DNA from: Candidatus Poribacteria bacterium | Lineage (GTDB): Bacteria; Poribacteria; WGA-4E; WGA-3G | Assembly (NCBI GenBank): GCA_964291315.2 | Contig: OZ219753.1 | Coordinates: forward strand, 1,088,001 to 1,152,000 | Length of the DNA stretch: 64,000 nucleotides | Direction: 5' to 3' | In this document: positions 24,436 through 52,775 of the stretch, one piece after another | Position numbering within the stretch: position 1 is the stretch's first letter | How the letters are laid out: the number at the start of each line of letters is the position of its first letter | Position numbers and translations under genes: made by a program | Notes under the pieces: model-generated | The model's database searches: none | What the model was told of the DNA's origin: nothing | The model's input: the letters and a program-made list of their open reading frames with translations, nothing else

Positions 24436-24765
24436 ATGACATCCCGAAAGATAGAAAAAGAGGTTCTTGGCGGTACCAATGGAACAGCACGTTGTAGCTG
24501 TGGCCGGCTCCGCTACCCGCGTTACAGGTTATGTCCGAAGTGTTACTATGCAACGCCTCCAAACACCCCAGATCCCAAGAAGCTGTCTCGTGCTGAACTC
24601 CTGAAGATGCAGGCTTCAAAAACGATGCCTCTTTCGGACCGGCAGGAACGGATCCTATTCCTAGAAAAACGGTACGGTGCACAGTTCCGAGGACAAGACA
24701 TTCGCTTTATGAAGAACTCGCAACTCTATGCATTATCCGAACAAGCAGGTTATCGTCGACGCTAA
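24436..24765 (+). CDS. Small basic hypothetical protein with a C4 zinc-finger-like motif
   Basis: RBS GGAGG; CSCG...CPKC; starts 4 nt after the stop of the GIY-YIG gene. Confidence 0.65.
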   Translation: MTSRKIEKEVLGGTNGTARCSCGRLRYPRYRLCPKCYYATPPNTPDPKKLSRAELLKMQASKTMPLSDRQERILFLEKRYGAQFRGQDIRFMKNSQLYALSEQAGYRRR

Positions 24766-24810
24766 ATTTTTGTCTATACCGTAGACATTCTTTCAATCTG
24801 TAAAAATATC

Positions 24811-24839
24811 TTGCTAAAAAAACAAATATCTGTTAAAAT
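24811..24839 (+). promoter_or_regulatory. Sigma70-like promoter for the HMA gene pair
   Basis: TTGCTA-N17-TAAAAT with extended TG. Confidence 0.55.
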
Positions 24840-24875
24840 AATAGAGACATATAATTATTCTAAGGAGGTTAACCC

Positions 24876-25271
24876 ATGCGTATCGCGAAATTATCGCTGA
24901 TTGCCCTAGTCGCCTTTGCTTTTATAGTAGGGTGCGGCATGATCGGGAAGAAAGCAGAAATGCCAGAGACTACCCCTACTTCCATCGAAACTGCCACAAC
25001 GCAATCTGAAGCCAAGGCTGACGACATGTCAGCATCCATGGAGGGAGCCGCCGTTGAAGAGGTAACACTGAACGTCACAGGTATGACATGAGGATCCTGT
25101 ACCGGTAAAGTGCAGGATGCACTTAGCAAGGTCACAGGCGTTTCGGAAGTGGTAAGTGTTTCTTCGGATACGAATACGGCTGTCGTAAGAATCAAAAAGG
25201 GTAAAGTGACGACTGCAGCGCTTACCGAGGCAGTTAAAGGTGCTGGTTTTAGTGCCAAGGTTGCCCAATAG
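24876..25271 (+). CDS. Heavy-metal-associated (HMA; CopZ/MerP-like) lipoprotein 1, predicted selenoprotein
   Basis: RBS AAGGAGG; lipobox IVGC; VTLNVTGMT-TGA(25089-91)-GSCTGKVQDALSKVTGVSEVVSVS...LTEAVKGAGFSAKVAQ-TAG; hairpin ATCCTGTAC-CGGTAAA-GTGCAGGAT (25094-25118). Confidence 0.9.
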
Positions 25272-25280
25272 GACATAATT

Positions 25281-25311
25281 TTGAAGGGGTGAGGTTTGCT
25301 CGCCCCTTCAA
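25281..25311 (+). other. Intergenic hairpin between the two HMA genes
   Basis: TTGAAGGGGTGAG-GTTTG-CTCGCCCCTTCAA. Confidence 0.6.
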
Positions 25312-25385
25312 TTGAGCAGATTGTAATGCAGAACATTAAAAGCTGCGTCTCGAAAACCGCTGCTATAAATGAGAGGTACAAACCT

Positions 25386-25730
25386 ATGTATCAATTAAAT
25401 GTAAGAATACTATTTGTCTGTCTCGCGGCACTTTTGCTCGTCGTTGCATGTGCGGACACAGAAAAGAAAACAACAGAAGCTCCAAGTCAGACAACGGAAG
25501 CAAACATTGAAGAGGTGACACTCGCTGTAACCGGCATGACTTGAGGTAGTTGTACTAGTAAGGTGCAGGATGCACTTACAAAGGTCGCCGGTGTTTCTGA
25601 AGTTGTCAGCGTTTCTATGCAAGAAAACAAGGCTGTCGTGAAAATTGAAAAGGGTAAAGTTGATAACAACGCACTTGTGAAGGCTATTGAAGGAGCAGGG
25701 GCAGGCTTTAGAGCCCAAGTTACCCACTAA
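25386..25730 (+). CDS. HMA lipoprotein 2 (tandem paralog), predicted selenoprotein
   Basis: RBS GAGAGG; lipobox VVAC; VTLAVTGMT-TGA(25542-44)-GSCTSKVQDALTKVAGVSEVV...AGFRAQVTH-TAA; weaker hairpin TTGTAC-TAGTAAG-GTGCAG. Confidence 0.88.
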
Positions 25731-25775
25731 GCACGAATCAGTAGAGCGATATCGGTTTGCGCTTCGTTCTATGAG

Positions 25776-25808
25776 AAAAAAGCGAGGTCCCAGGATCTCG
25801 CTTTTTTT
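25776..25808. terminator. Bidirectional intrinsic terminator
   Basis: AAAAAAGCGAGGTCC-CA-GGATCTCGCTTTTTTT between convergent genes. Confidence 0.85.
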
Positions 25809-25837
25809 ATGGAAGGTAAGGCCGCTTGGTGTTTAAC

Positions 25838-26698
25838 TTACTGCTGCTTCGTGTAGAGCGGCGTTTCAAGCAAAGATTGCACTTCATAAATGGAACCCTT
25901 CCGCTCAGCGTGGGGTTCCGGCATACGGACAGGTGCAGCTACGATGCGAGGCTCATTCGTCGGCTCACCACGGATAATAAAGCTATTAAAAGTGTGCCAA
26001 TCCGGGATACCCTTCAGGGGCCACGCGTCTACGGCACAATATTGGAACAGGAGCAAGCGGCGCGGCTTCTCAGATGTATTCGGGGCAGAACCGTGTAACG
26101 TTCGCACATGATGAATAGTGATACCCCCTGCTTTTAACTCGATAGGTACAGCACCCGCTGGCGTGAAATTGGGATCCGTTACCGCCCCAACAAACACCCC
26201 ATTTTGATGGTGATCCAAAGTCGGGCCCTTGTGTGAACCCGGAAGTATCATCAAGGCACCGTTCTCCACGCTCATATCATCAATAACAACCCCTACTGCC
26301 AGCAAACTATCGTTGGTATGTGGATAGAACGCCCAATCCTGATGCCATTCAACCGGGCTCCCGAACTCCGGATATTTCATATTCAGTTTATGCCCATTAT
26401 ATCGAACCCCCGGGCCAATGAGTTGTTCCACGATATCTAGAATCCTCGGATGCCGTAAAGCCCGATCATAAACAGTGTGGTGGATCCCCGGATTTTTGAT
26501 GCGCCGTACACGCGGGGTAGCAGAAGTATGCCCTGGTTCTAGGTCAAAAATATCAGTGTGTTTGGTAACTTCCCTCGATTTTTCAACGAATTCATCGGTG
26601 ATGCGCTGAAGATCAACGACCTCCTCTGACGTTAATACGGCTTCAACGCCGATATAGCCACTCCTGTTATAAAAATCAAGTTGTTCTCGTGTCAGCAC
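25838..26698 (-). CDS. Phytanoyl-CoA dioxygenase (PhyH) family protein
   Basis: 'VEWHQDWAF', 'ENGALMILPGSH' and 'HGSAPNTS..PRR'. Confidence 0.92.
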   Translation of the reverse strand: MLTREQLDFYNRSGYIGVEAVLTSEEVVDLQRITDEFVEKSREVTKHTDIFDLEPGHTSATPRVRRIKNPGIHHTVYDRALRHPRILDIVEQLIGPGVRYNGHKLNMKYPEFGSPVEWHQDWAFYPHTNDSLLAVGVVIDDMSVENGALMILPGSHKGPTLDHHQNGVFVGAVTDPNFTPAGAVPIELKAGGITIHHVRTLHGSAPNTSEKPRRLLLFQYCAVDAWPLKGIPDWHTFNSFIIRGEPTNEPRIVAAPVRMPEPHAERKGSIYEVQSLLETPLYTKQQ

Positions 26699-26753: not shown

Positions 26754-27698
26754 TTATCTACCCGGCCGCTGGCGTAAGGTTTCCCTAAATACCTCAAGGC
26801 TTGGGGTTTTGGGAATTGCGCGTAACAACGCTTTTAGATGATCTAAGTCCTCAATTTTTTCAAGGTCATCCTTTAACGTTTGCACAGACTCGGGCTGGAA
26901 CTGGTCACTCAGTAATTCAAGGATCAACTCAATAGCGCACTTCCTCTGCCCGCGTTCTAACCCGCGTTCTAACCCGCGTTCTAACCCGCGTTCTAACCCA
27001 CGTGCCATAGCGCGTTCTTCTGCTTCTCGAACGTATTCGCGGAAAAAAGGAGATTCTTGCATAATACCCTCCGGCAAAAATTGTTTTATCACTTGAGGAT
27101 CATGGACTAAACCACCAAAGACCCCCAAAGCAGCAAGCAGGAGATCTCGGTCGTTCTGATCCACGTTTGAGGTGAAGGTAGCATCAATACATGTTTCTAA
27201 CCAGCGCGTCGGCTCCATGTGTTCAGGCGGTCTCATTAACGGAGAGAGCGGCAGTAACCCGGGAACCGCAGCCTCCAAGATTGATTGCCCCTCTATGTCG
27301 ATGAGCCGAATTACCCTATACTTAAGCTTGTATTCACATCCATAGCCGACATACTCATAGTATCCAGGGTCATTTCTGCCCGCATGCGGGTGAAGGTAGA
27401 GAACACTCGAATAAGTTTTCAATCTATGTTCTCTGATAAGGAATCCGTTATAACCTGCAATCCGAAGCGGCATTGGTTCACGACTATCATATGCCTGAAA
27501 CTCGTTATGAAGGATAGCAACTTCATCACCGAAACGGACCTTCAGAGTGCTATCTGTTTCACGCGTCTTAAGCACGATTTGTTCAGTCGCTAAATTCTCC
27601 AATACTGTGACTTTTGGATATTTGAGGATGAGTTCTACAAAAGGTTCGGTATATTCGTTCGTTACAAATTTCGCTACATTATCATAACGATGTTTCAT
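26754..27698 (-). CDS. Rpn/YhgA-like PD-(D/E)xK nuclease (putative transposase family)
   Basis: 'ETDSTL...LHNEFQ', 'MPLRIAGY', 'VLYL' and 'MQESPFF...'; C-terminal (RGLE)n repeats. Confidence 0.85.
   Translation of the reverse strand: MKHRYDNVAKFVTNEYTEPFVELILKYPKVTVLENLATEQIVLKTRETDSTLKVRFGDEVAILHNEFQAYDSREPMPLRIAGYNGFLIREHRLKTYSSVLYLHPHAGRNDPGYYEYVGYGCEYKLKYRVIRLIDIEGQSILEAAVPGLLPLSPLMRPPEHMEPTRWLETCIDATFTSNVDQNDRDLLLAALGVFGGLVHDPQVIKQFLPEGIMQESPFFREYVREAEERAMARGLERGLERGLERGLERGQRKCAIELILELLSDQFQPESVQTLKDDLEKIEDLDHLKALLRAIPKTPSLEVFRETLRQRPGR
26950..26999. repeat. 12-bp coding tandem repeat (CCGCGTTCTAAC) x4 encoding RGLE
   Basis: Read directly inside the Rpn gene. Confidence 0.9.
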
Positions 27699-27793
27699 AT
27701 AGATAGTATACCCTAATATGTTAATCTCTGTCAACATCTTTTATTATAAAAATTTGGTTTCTCAGAAAGTTCTACTCCGCACAATCGCGCACA

Positions 27794-30000: not shown

Positions 30001-33000
30001 TTATTTTTTAACAAGCTGCGACCCTTCTAAAGGTCCGGGTGTCCCCGAGTCTAAAGACAATGCCGGCAAACGCTTAACAATCGCTACCGTCCGAAGACTG
30101 ACAGTGATAACGCGCGCCACTAAATCCACAATATACCGCGGCGCATCCGCACAATTCGGATCGGTAACCAGCCCGCTCCGACTGTGCGTCTTCACACGAT
30201 ACTGATCTATCACCCACTCCAACGCTGAACGAGTGCCTGACCGATACGCAAACGCCTCGGCTGGAATGCCCTCCAACGTCAAGAACTCGTTATATTTCAA
30301 CTGTGTCTTGTCTTTGGACAACCGCATCTTTTCGACGCGCCAGTTGAGCGGCACCTTGGGGTTCTGCATCAACCTGAGTTTTTCGTATTTCGGTTGAGAT
30401 TCGTAGTTAACGTGGAGGTCTGCGAGTTGTGCGCCTGCGGTAGCGAACGCCCAGAAGTCTGTGGTGAAGAGGATATGCGGCAGATCGCGTTTGAGGTTCG
30501 CCTCGTATCTCTGGCGGTAATCCGGATGATGTAGGAGCCCATAGGTGTAGTGGAAGATGTCCCACTTGCTGATGGTATCGTCCCTGTAGTGAGAGCGGAA
30601 CGTGGATAACGTCCAGTCGGTGATATTTTCGCGGCGGTTGCTCCCGTCTTCGTCATAGGTGTAGAAAGGAAAGCATTGGGTTGGTGATCCAAACCCGCCC
30701 GTTACTACAAGGTTAGGAGTACAAGCAGCCATCAAACAAGTAAAGGGTTTTTCTAGCGTCACGTTGACACAGATTACCCGATTTTCTGATTCAGTTTCTG
30801 GTGTAGGAAAGATAGATGGAAACATAGCAAGCCTGTCGTCCATTGTTTGATCAAAGTAGAGATTTAAAGTCGTAAACGGACGATAAAGTGATGTTCGTAT
30901 TTTCGCCTCTGTAAATACTGTGGTCTGACCCCTCTGTAGTTTCCGCTTTAACGTCGAACTCCACTTGATCTTCGTGGCATCGGAAATCAGAAAATTATCA
31001 ACGTTCGCCTCCCTATTTGTTCCTTGTGTCCAACGCGCCCCCTCTGCGTTGTAATTTTCTATCATCCTGCTTATATTTTCAGTGAGTGCGTCTCGGTTGA
31101 AATTGTAGACCCACGCATCACGATTTGTACTGATACCGAGACTGTAAGTTTTGAAAAGAACACCCTCTGTCTCTCCCGCAGAGGCTTTTGCTGCCTTAGT
31201 CCCCATCGGCGTGAAGGTGTCAAACTCAGGGTCCAGACTTTCTGTCAGCCATGCGTGCCGCGCATCGGGTTCAATGGACCGCCACGCAACACCGCCCACA
31301 TGCTGACATTTATTCAAGAACTCGAACTTCTGCTCTCTATTCCACAACTCATCCGTGCGATAGTAAAAGATACGCGGCTTCTCTGATGACTTGTCTCTAT
31401 TTTTCACGAATAGATTGATACTCACCCCTATCCGAATGTTGAATACATTCGCATGAGAGACCTTTAACCCGCGCTGCACATTCCCGCCTAAGTCGAGAAC
31501 GTAGAGGGCATCGAAGTCTGCCGCAAGGTGTTTTCGCACCCCATCAAACGCGATGCCGTCCAGAAAACTGTTATTCGTTACCAGAGCCACAACGCCCTCC
31601 TCTCCAATACGATCGGATGCCCATCGGATCGCCTTCACATACGGATCGTAGAGGTTATTTGGGGTCTGTGCTGCAGAGTCTTTGACATACGTCTCCGCAA
31701 CTCGTGCGTCCATGAGCGGGTGTTTCCTATTCTTGTTGTTGTCGTTCTCACTCCGCTGCCCGGCGTTATAAGGCGGGTTGCCGATCACTACGAACATGTC
31801 CGCCGACTTCTGCTCCTGCACCCGCTCTGTGTTTTCGCGCGTGAAGAGCTGTCCCTGCTCCTGCTCAAGCAGCTCGAACGTATCCGCCAGCACGATACCC
31901 TCAAACGGCAGATACGCACCCGTCCGACGGAAATACTCCTGCTCAATGTTCAAACTCGCAATGTAATACGGCAAAAGCATCACCTCGTTGCAGTGGAGTT
32001 CCGGTGGATTAGCGGTGTATTTTCGCTCCAGGGAGATCGGATCCAGGGACTGCATCAGCCGCACGATGAAGTTGCCCGTGCCGACAAACGGGTCTATGAT
32101 ATGCACACCGCTATCCGACAACGAACGATCAAACTCGGTTTTCAAAATGTGTTGTACGCTGTTGACCATGAAATCCACGATCGGCTGCGGCGTGTAGACA
32201 ATGCCGTGTGTGTCGGCTGTATCTTCGGAGAACCCTTGAAAGAACTTCTCATAGAACGTATTGAGGAAGCTCTGTTTCTGTGAGAAGTCTTTGCAGAGCA
32301 GTGCCGCTTGCTCAATAGCGGTGTAGAAACGATCTAAAGGTGCCAGAAACACATCCCGACTCACCGCATGCCGCATGAGTGCAGCACTGACATTCTCTAT
32401 CTCAACAGCGATAATGTTCCGATTCGCGAAGTCCGACCGGTTGAAAATCGTGCGGAAGATGCGTTCGGTGAGGATGTGTTGGATCAGCATCTCCTCAACC
32501 GCGTCTTGTGGAAGCTCTGGGTTGATCGCCGTGCGACAGGTCTCATAAAAGTTGGAAAATGCCGATTGGAATGCCGTATCCACCGCGTGCCGCTGGTTAA
32601 TGAGCTCTTTCAACTTGCCTGCGAGAGCGGGCACATGTTCTTTGAAGTCTTTTACAGCTGATTGCCAATTTTCTAGTGCCGGCGGCAGATAAGCGAACAG
32701 ACATTCAAGAGTGGCGATCAGTCCTGGAGCGTTGCGGATGTCGCTGTCTAAGGCGACCCGTCCGTTCTGATACACAATCGCACGCTCCGGGTTCTGAAAC
32801 AGGATGTTGTCGAGTGGATACCCCGCCGCACGTTTCTCCTCAACGGCTTTAGGGAAATCGTCATCTATGTCTTTTGCTTCCCAATAAGCGAGTGGCAGGC
32901 TATATTCATCTAAGATTGCGCCGTCAATCACGATGCGGTTTCCGTTGGGTGCGTGCATCTGATACTGCGGAATGAGCGTCGCTTTCAACTGCCTCGCGCA

Positions 33001-33132
33001 GACGTGCAGGAGTGCCTCGAAGGGAGAGCTCACCGCGCCTTCATGTCTGATGTCGTGGTGGTCGTATGCCTGCAGCGTGGCGTAATAGTCGCGGATCGGC
33101 TTGTGGGTAGGTTTGAGTCTGAGTTTCGGCAT
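30001..33132 (-). CDS. Single-chain restriction-modification enzyme: N6-MTase with a type ISP-like C-terminal specificity domain, no helicase
   Basis: N-terminal 'IDG...WEAKD' nuclease motif; 'GIVYTPQPIVDFM', 'DPFVGTGNF' and 'VIGNPPY'; C-terminal 'IFHYTYGLLHHPDYRQRYEANLKRDLP'. Confidence 0.88.
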   Translation of the reverse strand: MPKLRLKPTHKPIRDYYATLQAYDHHDIRHEGAVSSPFEALLHVCARQLKATLIPQYQMHAPNGNRIVIDGAILDEYSLPLAYWEAKDIDDDFPKAVEEKRAAGYPLDNILFQNPERAIVYQNGRVALDSDIRNAPGLIATLECLFAYLPPALENWQSAVKDFKEHVPALAGKLKELINQRHAVDTAFQSAFSNFYETCRTAINPELPQDAVEEMLIQHILTERIFRTIFNRSDFANRNIIAVEIENVSAALMRHAVSRDVFLAPLDRFYTAIEQAALLCKDFSQKQSFLNTFYEKFFQGFSEDTADTHGIVYTPQPIVDFMVNSVQHILKTEFDRSLSDSGVHIIDPFVGTGNFIVRLMQSLDPISLERKYTANPPELHCNEVMLLPYYIASLNIEQEYFRRTGAYLPFEGIVLADTFELLEQEQGQLFTRENTERVQEQKSADMFVVIGNPPYNAGQRSENDNNKNRKHPLMDARVAETYVKDSAAQTPNNLYDPYVKAIRWASDRIGEEGVVALVTNNSFLDGIAFDGVRKHLAADFDALYVLDLGGNVQRGLKVSHANVFNIRIGVSINLFVKNRDKSSEKPRIFYYRTDELWNREQKFEFLNKCQHVGGVAWRSIEPDARHAWLTESLDPEFDTFTPMGTKAAKASAGETEGVLFKTYSLGISTNRDAWVYNFNRDALTENISRMIENYNAEGARWTQGTNREANVDNFLISDATKIKWSSTLKRKLQRGQTTVFTEAKIRTSLYRPFTTLNLYFDQTMDDRLAMFPSIFPTPETESENRVICVNVTLEKPFTCLMAACTPNLVVTGGFGSPTQCFPFYTYDEDGSNRRENITDWTLSTFRSHYRDDTISKWDIFHYTYGLLHHPDYRQRYEANLKRDLPHILFTTDFWAFATAGAQLADLHVNYESQPKYEKLRLMQNPKVPLNWRVEKMRLSKDKTQLKYNEFLTLEGIPAEAFAYRSGTRSALEWVIDQYRVKTHSRSGLVTDPNCADAPRYIVDLVARVITVSLRTVAIVKRLPALSLDSGTPGPLEGSQLVKK

Positions 33133-52288: not shown

Positions 52289-52775
52289 AATATCTTGGCA
52301 AACTGCTGCGCCACTAATCAACGTAGCGGTCCCGATGCTAATATTGGATTGGGTGAGTAAGTGGTTTGTGCAAATGCATATCACTCAGATCACAGAAGTG
52401 ATTCCGATCATTCCAGGGTTCTTTAATCTCCGGCATGATAGAAATACGGGGGCAGCTTTCGGTGTGCTTGCGGGACACAGAGTTTTACTTATTTTGATTA
52501 CTATCGCTGCCTTAGTTTTCATCATCACATACTATTTACGTTTCAAGGAGAGTCGCTGGATGCAAACCTCACTCGGCTTTCTGCTTGGTGGTGCTATTGG
52601 CAACTTTATTGACAGGATTCGCCTGGGTGAAGTCGTCGATTTCCTTCAATTCGGTATAGCAAGTAAAGGATTGTATTGGCCAACGTTCAACATTGCTGAT
52701 GTTTCCGTCTGTATTGGGGCAGGCATGCTAATTGTTTATCTATTTCGCCATCGTAATGAAAATTATCAAGACTGA
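52266..52775 (+). CDS. lspA: Lipoprotein signal peptidase II
   Basis: 'DWVSK', 'NTGAAFG', 'GAIGNFIDR', 'VVDF' and 'FNIAD'. Confidence 0.96.
   Translation: MSIIQKSKISWQTAAPLINVAVPMLILDWVSKWFVQMHITQITEVIPIIPGFFNLRHDRNTGAAFGVLAGHRVLLILITIAALVFIITYYLRFKESRWMQTSLGFLLGGAIGNFIDRIRLGEVVDFLQFGIASKGLYWPTFNIADVSVCIGAGMLIVYLFRHRNENYQD

Follow-up and report, generated by a model that had tools for sequence, protein, structure and literature searches.

Results

Two genes for predicted lipoproteins with an in-frame TGA

We have examined a stretch of 64,000 nucleotides (the window) from a Candidatus Poribacteria bacterium (assembly GCA_964291315.2, contig OZ219753.1, positions 1,088,001 to 1,152,000; the source genome comprises 4.40 Mb in four contigs and is 95.2% complete), and in particular two neighbouring genes, here called A and B, which very probably encode selenoproteins with an HMA domain. 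A first-pass annotation, made from the letters of the window alone, had proposed that both products are lipid-anchored, extracytoplasmic HMA proteins containing selenocysteine (Sec), and the architecture which it described was found in both genes. Each begins with a signal peptide ending in a lipobox and continues with a linker of some 40 (A) or 20 (B) residues in which Thr, Ala and Glu abound. An in-frame TGA then stands exactly at the first Cys of the GMTCxxC motif of HMA domains, and the frame runs on to a TAG or TAA (Table 1). The HMA parts of the two proteins are 58% identical to each other.

The features of bacterial lipoproteins are present in both products: a signal peptide, a lipobox Cys and, elsewhere in the genome, the genes for Lgt (174 bits) and LspA (138.5 bits). 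A lipobox plus the start Met was recognized by a regular expression in 30 of 30 A orthologues; a strict regular expression found the lipobox in 23 of 30 B orthologues. When the TGA is read through, the products align to nearly the whole Pfam profile PF00403 (positions 1-61 of 62 for A and 1-60 for B, with scores well above the gathering cut-off of 24.8), and the match therefore spans the TGA. An AlphaFold model of the HMA part of A, computed with 24 relatives in the input, reached a predicted local distance difference test score of 93.5 and has the order strand-helix-strand-strand-helix (E-H-E-E-H), the last strand lying outside the 66 residues folded. The closest solved structure is that of the periplasmic MerP of Cupriavidus/Ralstonia metallidurans (1osd; template modelling score 0.90, root-mean-square deviation 0.9 Å, 45% identity), followed by CopZ and the HMA domains of ATPases at about 30% identity. 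All 34 sequence matches in the PDB are metal-binding HMA domains or chaperones. Score, fold and structural neighbours (MerP and CopZ) thus agree with membership of the HMA family.

Table 1. Features of the gene pair and its surroundings, in window coordinates
Feature	Position	Strand	Description
Gene A	24876-25271	+	ATG to TAG (25269-25271); 131 codons; predicted Sec-containing HMA lipoprotein
In-frame TGA of gene A	25089-25091	+	Codon 72; first ligand position of GMT-U-GSC; predicted to be read as Sec
Gene B	25386-25730	+	ATG to TAA (25728-25730); 114 codons; predicted Sec-containing HMA lipoprotein; paralogue of A
In-frame TGA of gene B	25542-25544	+	Codon 53; GMT-U-GSC; predicted to be read as Sec
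Signal peptide of A	24876-24935	+	Hydrophobic; lipobox IVGC; Cys20 = 24933-24935
Signal peptide of B	25386-25451	+	Hydrophobic; lipobox VVAC; Cys22 = 25449-25451
HMA domain of A	25065-25250	+	Residues 64-125; Pfam PF00403, 43.8 bits
HMA domain of B	25518-25700	+	Residues 45-105; Pfam PF00403, 42.7 bits
SECIS-like hairpin of A	25109-25123	+	AGUGCA-GGA-UGCACU; 7 bp at 25108-25124; -7.4 kcal/mol, z -4.3
SECIS-like hairpin of B	25562-25576	+	GGUGCA-GGA-UGCACU; 7 bp at 25561-25577; -7.1 kcal/mol, z -4.8
Shine-Dalgarno sequence	24862-24868	+	AAGGAGG; 7 nt ahead of the gene A ATG; read from the sequence
Promoter-like site	24811-24839	+	TTGCTA-17-TAAAAT with TG, upstream of gene A; consensus scan, 9/12 matches; weak evidence
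Intergenic hairpin	25281-25311	+	Strong, 13 bp, without a U tract after it; -23.5 kcal/mol, z -5.45
Terminator hairpin	25775-25808		15 bp, A run before and U run after; between gene B and the convergent PhyH gene; -20.6 kcal/mol, z -6.3
LspA	52326-52745	+	Lipoprotein signal peptidase; Peptidase_A8, 138.5 bits

The genome has the machinery for selenocysteine and uses TGA as a stop

A search for selA, selB, selC and selD, which the first-pass annotation had suggested, found all four over the curated cut-offs: selA with 588.9 bits, selD with 357 bits, and selB (328.8 bits, cut-off 242) adjoining the gene for tRNA-Sec (78.1 bits, cut-off 47). The selD gene, which lies outside the window (G000 contig C4:721940-722863; numbers with G, C and L refer to our genomes, contigs and loci), itself contains one in-frame TGA, and selenophosphate synthetase is for this reason probably a selenoprotein in this genome. 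Elsewhere TGA is an ordinary stop codon, terminating 376 of the 1781 ATG-started open reading frames of at least 300 amino acids, and a changed genetic code is therefore excluded.

The TGA is conserved and aligns with Cys

A match was found in 149 of 151 sampled Poribacteria genomes, and among the best matches listed (413 weaker ones lie outside this list) all but six had exactly one TGA. Both genes were present in each of 30 loci of the same genus, namely that of the window and 29 from other genomes, and all 60 HMA motifs of these loci read GMT-U-xx-C (U denoting Sec), which is far beyond chance. At 44-68% identity, other genera and three additional families of the order likewise retain the U. 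In the orthologous lipoprotein of one genome (G053) the column is occupied by Cys, in the motif GMTCGAC (L077), and another genome (G031) has Cys in gene B (GMTCGVC, L067) and Sec in gene A. The pairing of TGA with Cys among homologues, proposed beforehand as a check, is thus borne out across the order, and a conserved UGA with aligned Cys homologues is one of the marks by which selenoproteins are recognized.

The part of each gene behind the TGA evolves as coding sequence. Relatives differ from the window genes after the TGA at 206, 158 and 724 first, second and third codon positions in A, and at 276, 179 and 690 in B. Third-position changes dominate, from which we conclude that purifying selection acts on the downstream half as protein. 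The accumulation of stops and frameshifts in relatives, which the first-pass annotation had named as the outcome that would speak against it, was not seen; the frame is kept.

A short hairpin follows the UGA in Sec forms

We aligned the 54 nt from the UGA onwards of 99 distinct Sec-type HMA domains. Invariant in this alignment are GUGC at +22 to +25, G27, GCA at +31 to +33 and U35, and A26, U30 and C34 are each retained in at least 90% of the sequences. RNAalifold, unprompted, returned a single helix, formed by columns 21-26 with 30-35 around a three-base loop, in which 558 of 558 cells are standard pairs; the closing pair changes from A-U to G-C, a compensatory change, in one sequence and to G-U in another. 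A hairpin at +21 to +35 with the core GUGCA-GNN-UGCAC and 6-7 bp is thus conserved at the place, shortly 3' of the UGA, where a selenocysteine insertion sequence (SECIS) stem-loop is looked for in a selenoprotein gene. In a pattern scan which allowed four combinations at the closing pair, 94 distinct sequences had AU 76 times, GU 6, GC 10 and AC 2 times; these counts, which come from related sequences and carry no formal test, are suggestive of pairing.

Because most of the stem never varies, codon usage is a stronger argument than pairing. In 86 Sec forms the Val codon within the stem is GTG (86/86), the following Gln position is CAG in 84 and CGG in two, and the Ala codon is GCA (86/86). The eight Cys forms have GTG in six and GCA in three, and their Gln position holds Gln in three (all CAG), Glu in four and Lys in one. 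At a Val seven codons downstream, the Sec forms use GTC 33 times, GTT 35, GTA 3 and GTG only twice. The same relation is found within one five-domain protein, in which three Sec domains keep the stem and a Cys domain, the only one captured by the motif search, breaks it by a synonymous GTT. At its synonymous sites the stem is fixed where the column holds Sec and relaxed where it holds Cys; the constraint thus goes with the UGA.

The first-pass annotation had quoted a different hairpin after each UGA. The complementarities that it quoted exist, and for the 42 nt behind the UGA of A the 9-bp hairpin even represents the fold of lowest energy (-14.6 kcal/mol, z -2.85, against -7.4 kcal/mol for the conserved hairpin). 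However, they are not conserved: across 93 distinct homologues 69.3% of the cells pair, a value reached by 470 of 500 shuffles, and we reject them as the conserved element. Their 3' arm is GUGCAGGAU, and the outer pairs are broken in most relatives. With the UGA in the A site, their 5' arm (+6 to +14) would lie within the footprint of the ribosome.

Further genes with the same module

A third gene for a Sec-type HMA protein lies elsewhere in the same genome (G000 contig C3:361658-363280; locus L024:139-1734). Its product of about 530 residues has a PSCyt1 cytochrome motif, WD40 repeats and a C-terminal HMA domain with GMT-U-QAC, and the hairpin AAGUGCG-GGU-UGCACUU stands at the same offset as in A and B; in relatives of this protein the column is occupied by U (G053) or by C (G015). 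Proteins of about 400 residues with five HMA domains are encoded in L074 (G061:C1:35324-44421) and L073 (G080:C1:1189094-1197330). Sec occupies the first three domains in L074 and the first two in L073, each with its own hairpin, and the other domains have Cys. The products of both loci are therefore predicted, from their sequences, to be bacterial proteins with several Sec residues.

A scan of bacteria and archaea, one genome per species, for the pattern ATGACN-TGA-N6-TGY-N9-GUGCRGNNYGCAC gave at least 121 matching stretches. By record title, the 80 loci listed comprise 60 from Poribacteria, three from an 'uncultured bacterium' with Poribacteria-like sequence and 17 under other names. Nine of these 17 belong to Planctomycetota (including Gemmataceae, Ca. 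Kuenenia and the cultured Rohdeia mirabilis Pla163) and four to Acidobacteriota or its subgroups, with one each from Akkermansiaceae, Fimbriimonas, Latescibacterota and Acidimicrobiia. An open frame with GMT-U-xx-C or NMT-U-xx-C is present in every one of the 17, and an N-terminal signal-like or lipobox sequence in about 14 of them. HMA-type NCBIfam models were matched by 9 of 11 proteins scanned from these records; none of the 10 single-domain proteins tested reached a curated cut-off. In Rohdeia mirabilis Pla163 (L114/L222; NZ_CP036290.1, ~4240321-4241422) three HMA genes stand in tandem, two of them with a TGA and at least one with the same module of UGA and hairpin.

Genomic context

The neighbours of the pair are a GIY-YIG/UvrC-like gene, a small open reading frame of no known family and a convergent gene for a PhyH dioxygenase. 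This order is conserved within the family, the GIY-YIG gene adjoining the pair in 43 of the 51 loci examined, and it gives no hint as to metals. The view that A and B form a stand-alone pair with its own promoter and terminator agrees with what we found: a promoter-like site upstream of A, a strong terminator hairpin behind B and no mer or cop genes nearby. The promoter consensus scan gave five such sites in the region, with 2.0 expected. The terminator hairpin was missing from the list of a simple scan and was seen by folding. The hairpin between the two genes could be an element for processing, stabilising or attenuating the transcript. The genome contains one Cu(I) P-type ATPase (590 bits), which has no in-frame stop. 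A look-up of sequencing runs listed six that contain this DNA, all of DNA or unknown type and from three studies, and none of RNA.

Several other observations were made on the way. A gene for a thiamine-pyrophosphate enzyme adjoins the Sec-HMA gene in three loci, L071 and L095 of Poribacteria family f2 and L222 of Rohdeia; these represent two Poribacteria genera and one planctomycete, and the association may be a coincidence. Within the window, positions 26754-27737 of the minus strand hold an open reading frame of 327 residues with five tandem RGLE repeats and no Pfam match, and positions 30001-33132, also on the minus strand, encode a Type ISP restriction-modification enzyme of 1042 residues (Type_ISP_C, 333 bits, with coupler and N6_Mtase domains).

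Public annotation of relatives

It had been foreseen that standard annotation would truncate both genes, and public protein sets contain just such records. We retrieved 27 proteins of 49 hits. Nine of the 27 break off precisely at ...TGMT and several begin with MQDALSKV or MCTSKVQ; three (P0006, P0021 and P0022) have W at the position of the TGA. The names given by NCBI to retrieved relatives are 'cation transporter' (two) and 'hypothetical protein' (one).

Discussion

The genes A and B are, as we have shown, intact reading frames with a TGA at the position of a metal-ligand Cys, conserved together with a hairpin in a genome which has the complete sel gene set. We hold with high confidence that they are real selenoprotein genes. 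That their products are exported lipoproteins which bind a soft metal is, on balance, probable. As a whole, we are fairly confident that the locus is best explained by intact Sec genes whose UGA is read with the help of SelB and whose products are exported lipoproteins with a soft-metal site of the form U-x-x-C. According to this model, the ribosome would meet the UGA and, 18 nt further on, the small hairpin (A/G)GUGCA-GNN-UGCACU in each mRNA, and the hairpin would recruit SelB with Sec-tRNA(Sec), so that the UGA is read as selenocysteine. The signal peptide would then export each protein, Lgt and LspA would modify the Cys of the lipobox, and the mature protein would sit on the membrane facing the periplasm, attached through its flexible, acidic linker rich in Thr and Ala. 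Here the MerP-like HMA domain could present a selenolate-thiolate pair in the canonical metal loop. This pair would bind a soft metal ion, among which Hg(II) and Cu(I) rank first as candidates and Ag(I) and Cd(II) are possible, and the metal might be buffered, sequestered or handed over outside the cytoplasm.

The closest relative is MerP (TIGR02052; PDB 1osd and 1afi). Like MerP, A and B have a single HMA domain, predicted to be exported, with a GMT-C-x-x-C type of loop, and many of their orthologues also retain the 'CP' after the second Cys. Unlike MerP, which is soluble, they are predicted to carry Sec in place of the first Cys and to be anchored by a lipid through a long linker; moreover, they reach only 49.4 and 44.8 bits with TIGR02052 (cut-off 92.55) and there is no mer operon here. 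A second comparison is offered by NF041115 (UxxU_metal_bind), which describes a small HMA-like selenoprotein with Sec in the metal loop. This model is among the best-scoring NCBIfam models for A and B and is often the best for relatives in other phyla. However, its motif is UxxU and that of A and B is UxxC, these two reach only 49.2 and 56.8 bits (cut-off 95), and they add the signal peptide, the lipobox and the linker. The UxxC form of the catalogued ATPase shows the same substitution in the same HMA loop, but in that case the domain is cytoplasmic and part of a pump, whereas A and B would be free-standing exported lipoproteins. Some other relationships can be set aside. NF045683, a MerT/CopZ fusion selenoprotein, is matched with about 44 bits against 375, in the HMA part only. 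NF041046, the 'UGSC-containing protein', had no match at E up to 0.01, and the UGSC tetrapeptide which it shares with A and B is a coincidence. The CopZ types NF033795, NF033794 and NF047957 gave at best 58.9 bits against a cut-off of 85 (range 85-95), and these scores, together with the signal peptide and lipobox, speak against a cytoplasmic chaperone of the CopZ type.

Could the TGA be a true stop, so that A and B are pseudogenes, or each a short lipopeptide gene followed by a separate open reading frame? Gene callers do yield just such pieces, as the public stubs ending in ...TGMT and those starting at MQDALSKV illustrate. Neither half alone would be a foldable HMA domain, however, and the column and the frame persist in all 60 genes of the 30 same-genus loci and across families down to about 45% identity. 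The dominance of third-position changes behind the TGA, the uninterrupted Cys orthologues and the presence of the Sec machinery point the same way, and we regard a true stop as very improbable. We give equally little credence to the idea that the UGA is recoded to Trp, Gly or Cys, by a change of code or by near-cognate read-through. Although some metagenome pipelines do write W at this position, the use of TGA as the end of so many long reading frames leaves no room for reassignment, Trp or Gly would destroy a site which aligns with a metal-ligand Cys, and the conserved hairpin together with the complete sel gene set fits Sec.

A more serious alternative accepts A and B as real exported selenoproteins and takes U-x-x-C as a redox centre working through a selenenylsulfide, either in a periplasmic reductase or in a carrier of sulfur or selenium species. 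No redox motif is commoner among bacterial selenoproteins than UxxC, and the catalogued families are for the most part redox proteins (PMC1088965, PMC13188914). The lack of metal-homeostasis genes near the pair would also suit such a role, and the MerP of the best structural match, 1osd, had been crystallised in the oxidised state. Against it stand the fold, which is that of HMA and not thioredoxin-like, the retention of the entire GMT-x-x-x-C loop of metal-binding HMA domains and the fact that every sequence match among solved structures is a metal-binding domain or chaperone. We consider the redox role unlikely, less so than a stop or a non-Sec recoding, and return to the soft-metal site in an exported selenoprotein as the preferred interpretation.

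Several results weigh against this interpretation, on the side of both the metal and the hairpin. No metal gene lies near the pair in the window, none was found in five distant Poribacteria loci, and none in five loci titled Rohdeia mirabilis, Acidobacteriota, Terriglobia, Akkermansiaceae and Gemmataceae; in both of these sets the neighbours are housekeeping genes. In the genome, at its 95.2% completeness, MerT had no match and the best match to MerA scored 396.3 bits against a cut-off of 454.45. All curated models of MerP, CopZ and selenoproteins score A and B under their cut-offs. As for the hairpin, an Rfam scan of positions 24700-25900 with E up to 10 gave no SECIS family and only chance matches to miRNA, lncRNA and the CsrC terminator, in a collection where models of bacterial SECIS elements are few. 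For gene B, the fold of the 52 nt behind the UGA is no better than that of shuffled sequences (z 0.26), and gene A can also form a stabler 9-bp alternative hairpin which uses the same 5' arm. In its favour, the conserved hairpin resembles the proven SECIS of Escherichia coli fdhF (NC_000913.3) in its UGCA...UGCA stem closed by A-U, in the G as first loop base and in its fixed short distance 3' of the UGA within the coding sequence. It differs in being short, with a loop of three nucleotides (GGA, GUC, GGC or GGG) and not four, in having neither the bulged U nor a conserved lower stem, and in the start of its loop at +27 instead of +22.

Which metal might the proteins bind? Selenium has an extreme affinity for Hg, and Cu(I) is the commonest ligand of HMA domains. 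With MerP as the closest relative, Hg(II) is therefore a candidate, and so is Cu(I), given also the Cu pump of the genome; both the proposed binding and the choice between the two ions are argued from homology and chemistry. Since a selenolate keeps its deprotonated state and is readily reduced again, it would suit an oxidising periplasm. The first-pass annotation had spoken of a metal-scavenging module without mer or cop genes. The second half of this phrase holds for the neighbourhood of the pair; scavenging is a putative role, suggested by the domain.

The module had also been called little-described. Among metal-related selenoprotein families, two reviews of prokaryotic selenoproteomes name a UxxC 'cation-transporting ATPase' and a MerT-type transporter (PMC9312934, PMC13188914). 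In the 2026 review the words lipoprotein, HMA, periplasm and sponge do not occur. Full-text literature searches, outside which subscription papers and supplements lie, found no description of an exported or lipoprotein UxxC HMA selenoprotein or of such selenoproteins in Poribacteria. Sec in an HMA loop is thus of a known kind, since HMA-type selenoproteins are already catalogued as the UxxC ATPase and the UxxU family NF041115, and 'little-described' is too broad for these. It is apt for the exported, lipid-anchored UxxC form with the SECIS found here, which, as far as these sources extend, appears to be uncatalogued.

If A and B are what we propose, hundreds of public genomes contain mis-split genes of this kind, and a new curated model would mend their annotation. 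In an aerobic marine symbiont, Sec would serve as an extracytoplasmic ligand for metal. This would widen a picture of bacterial selenoproteins in which redox functions and cytoplasmic proteins prevail, and would tie selenium to the handling of Hg or Cu in sponges. The nearly invariant hairpin of 15 nt would be a compact and testable SECIS, and the presence of the module in a cultured planctomycete would offer an experimental handle. More speculatively, the pair may be part of a cross-phylum family of exported selenolate metal-binding lipoproteins which is absent from curated catalogues and shares one conserved SECIS, from Poribacteria to the records titled Planctomycetota, Acidobacteriota, Akkermansiaceae, Fimbriimonas, Latescibacterota and Acidimicrobiia. 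In sponge symbionts such a family could have expanded to tandem pairs, a fusion with cytochrome and WD40 parts, and arrays with up to three Sec residues, for a selenium-dependent capture of Hg or Cu in the periplasm. We put this forward only tentatively, as a possibility which we find less likely than not to hold in full. Perhaps, if such a family exists, it could contribute to the metal tolerance of the sponge holobiont.

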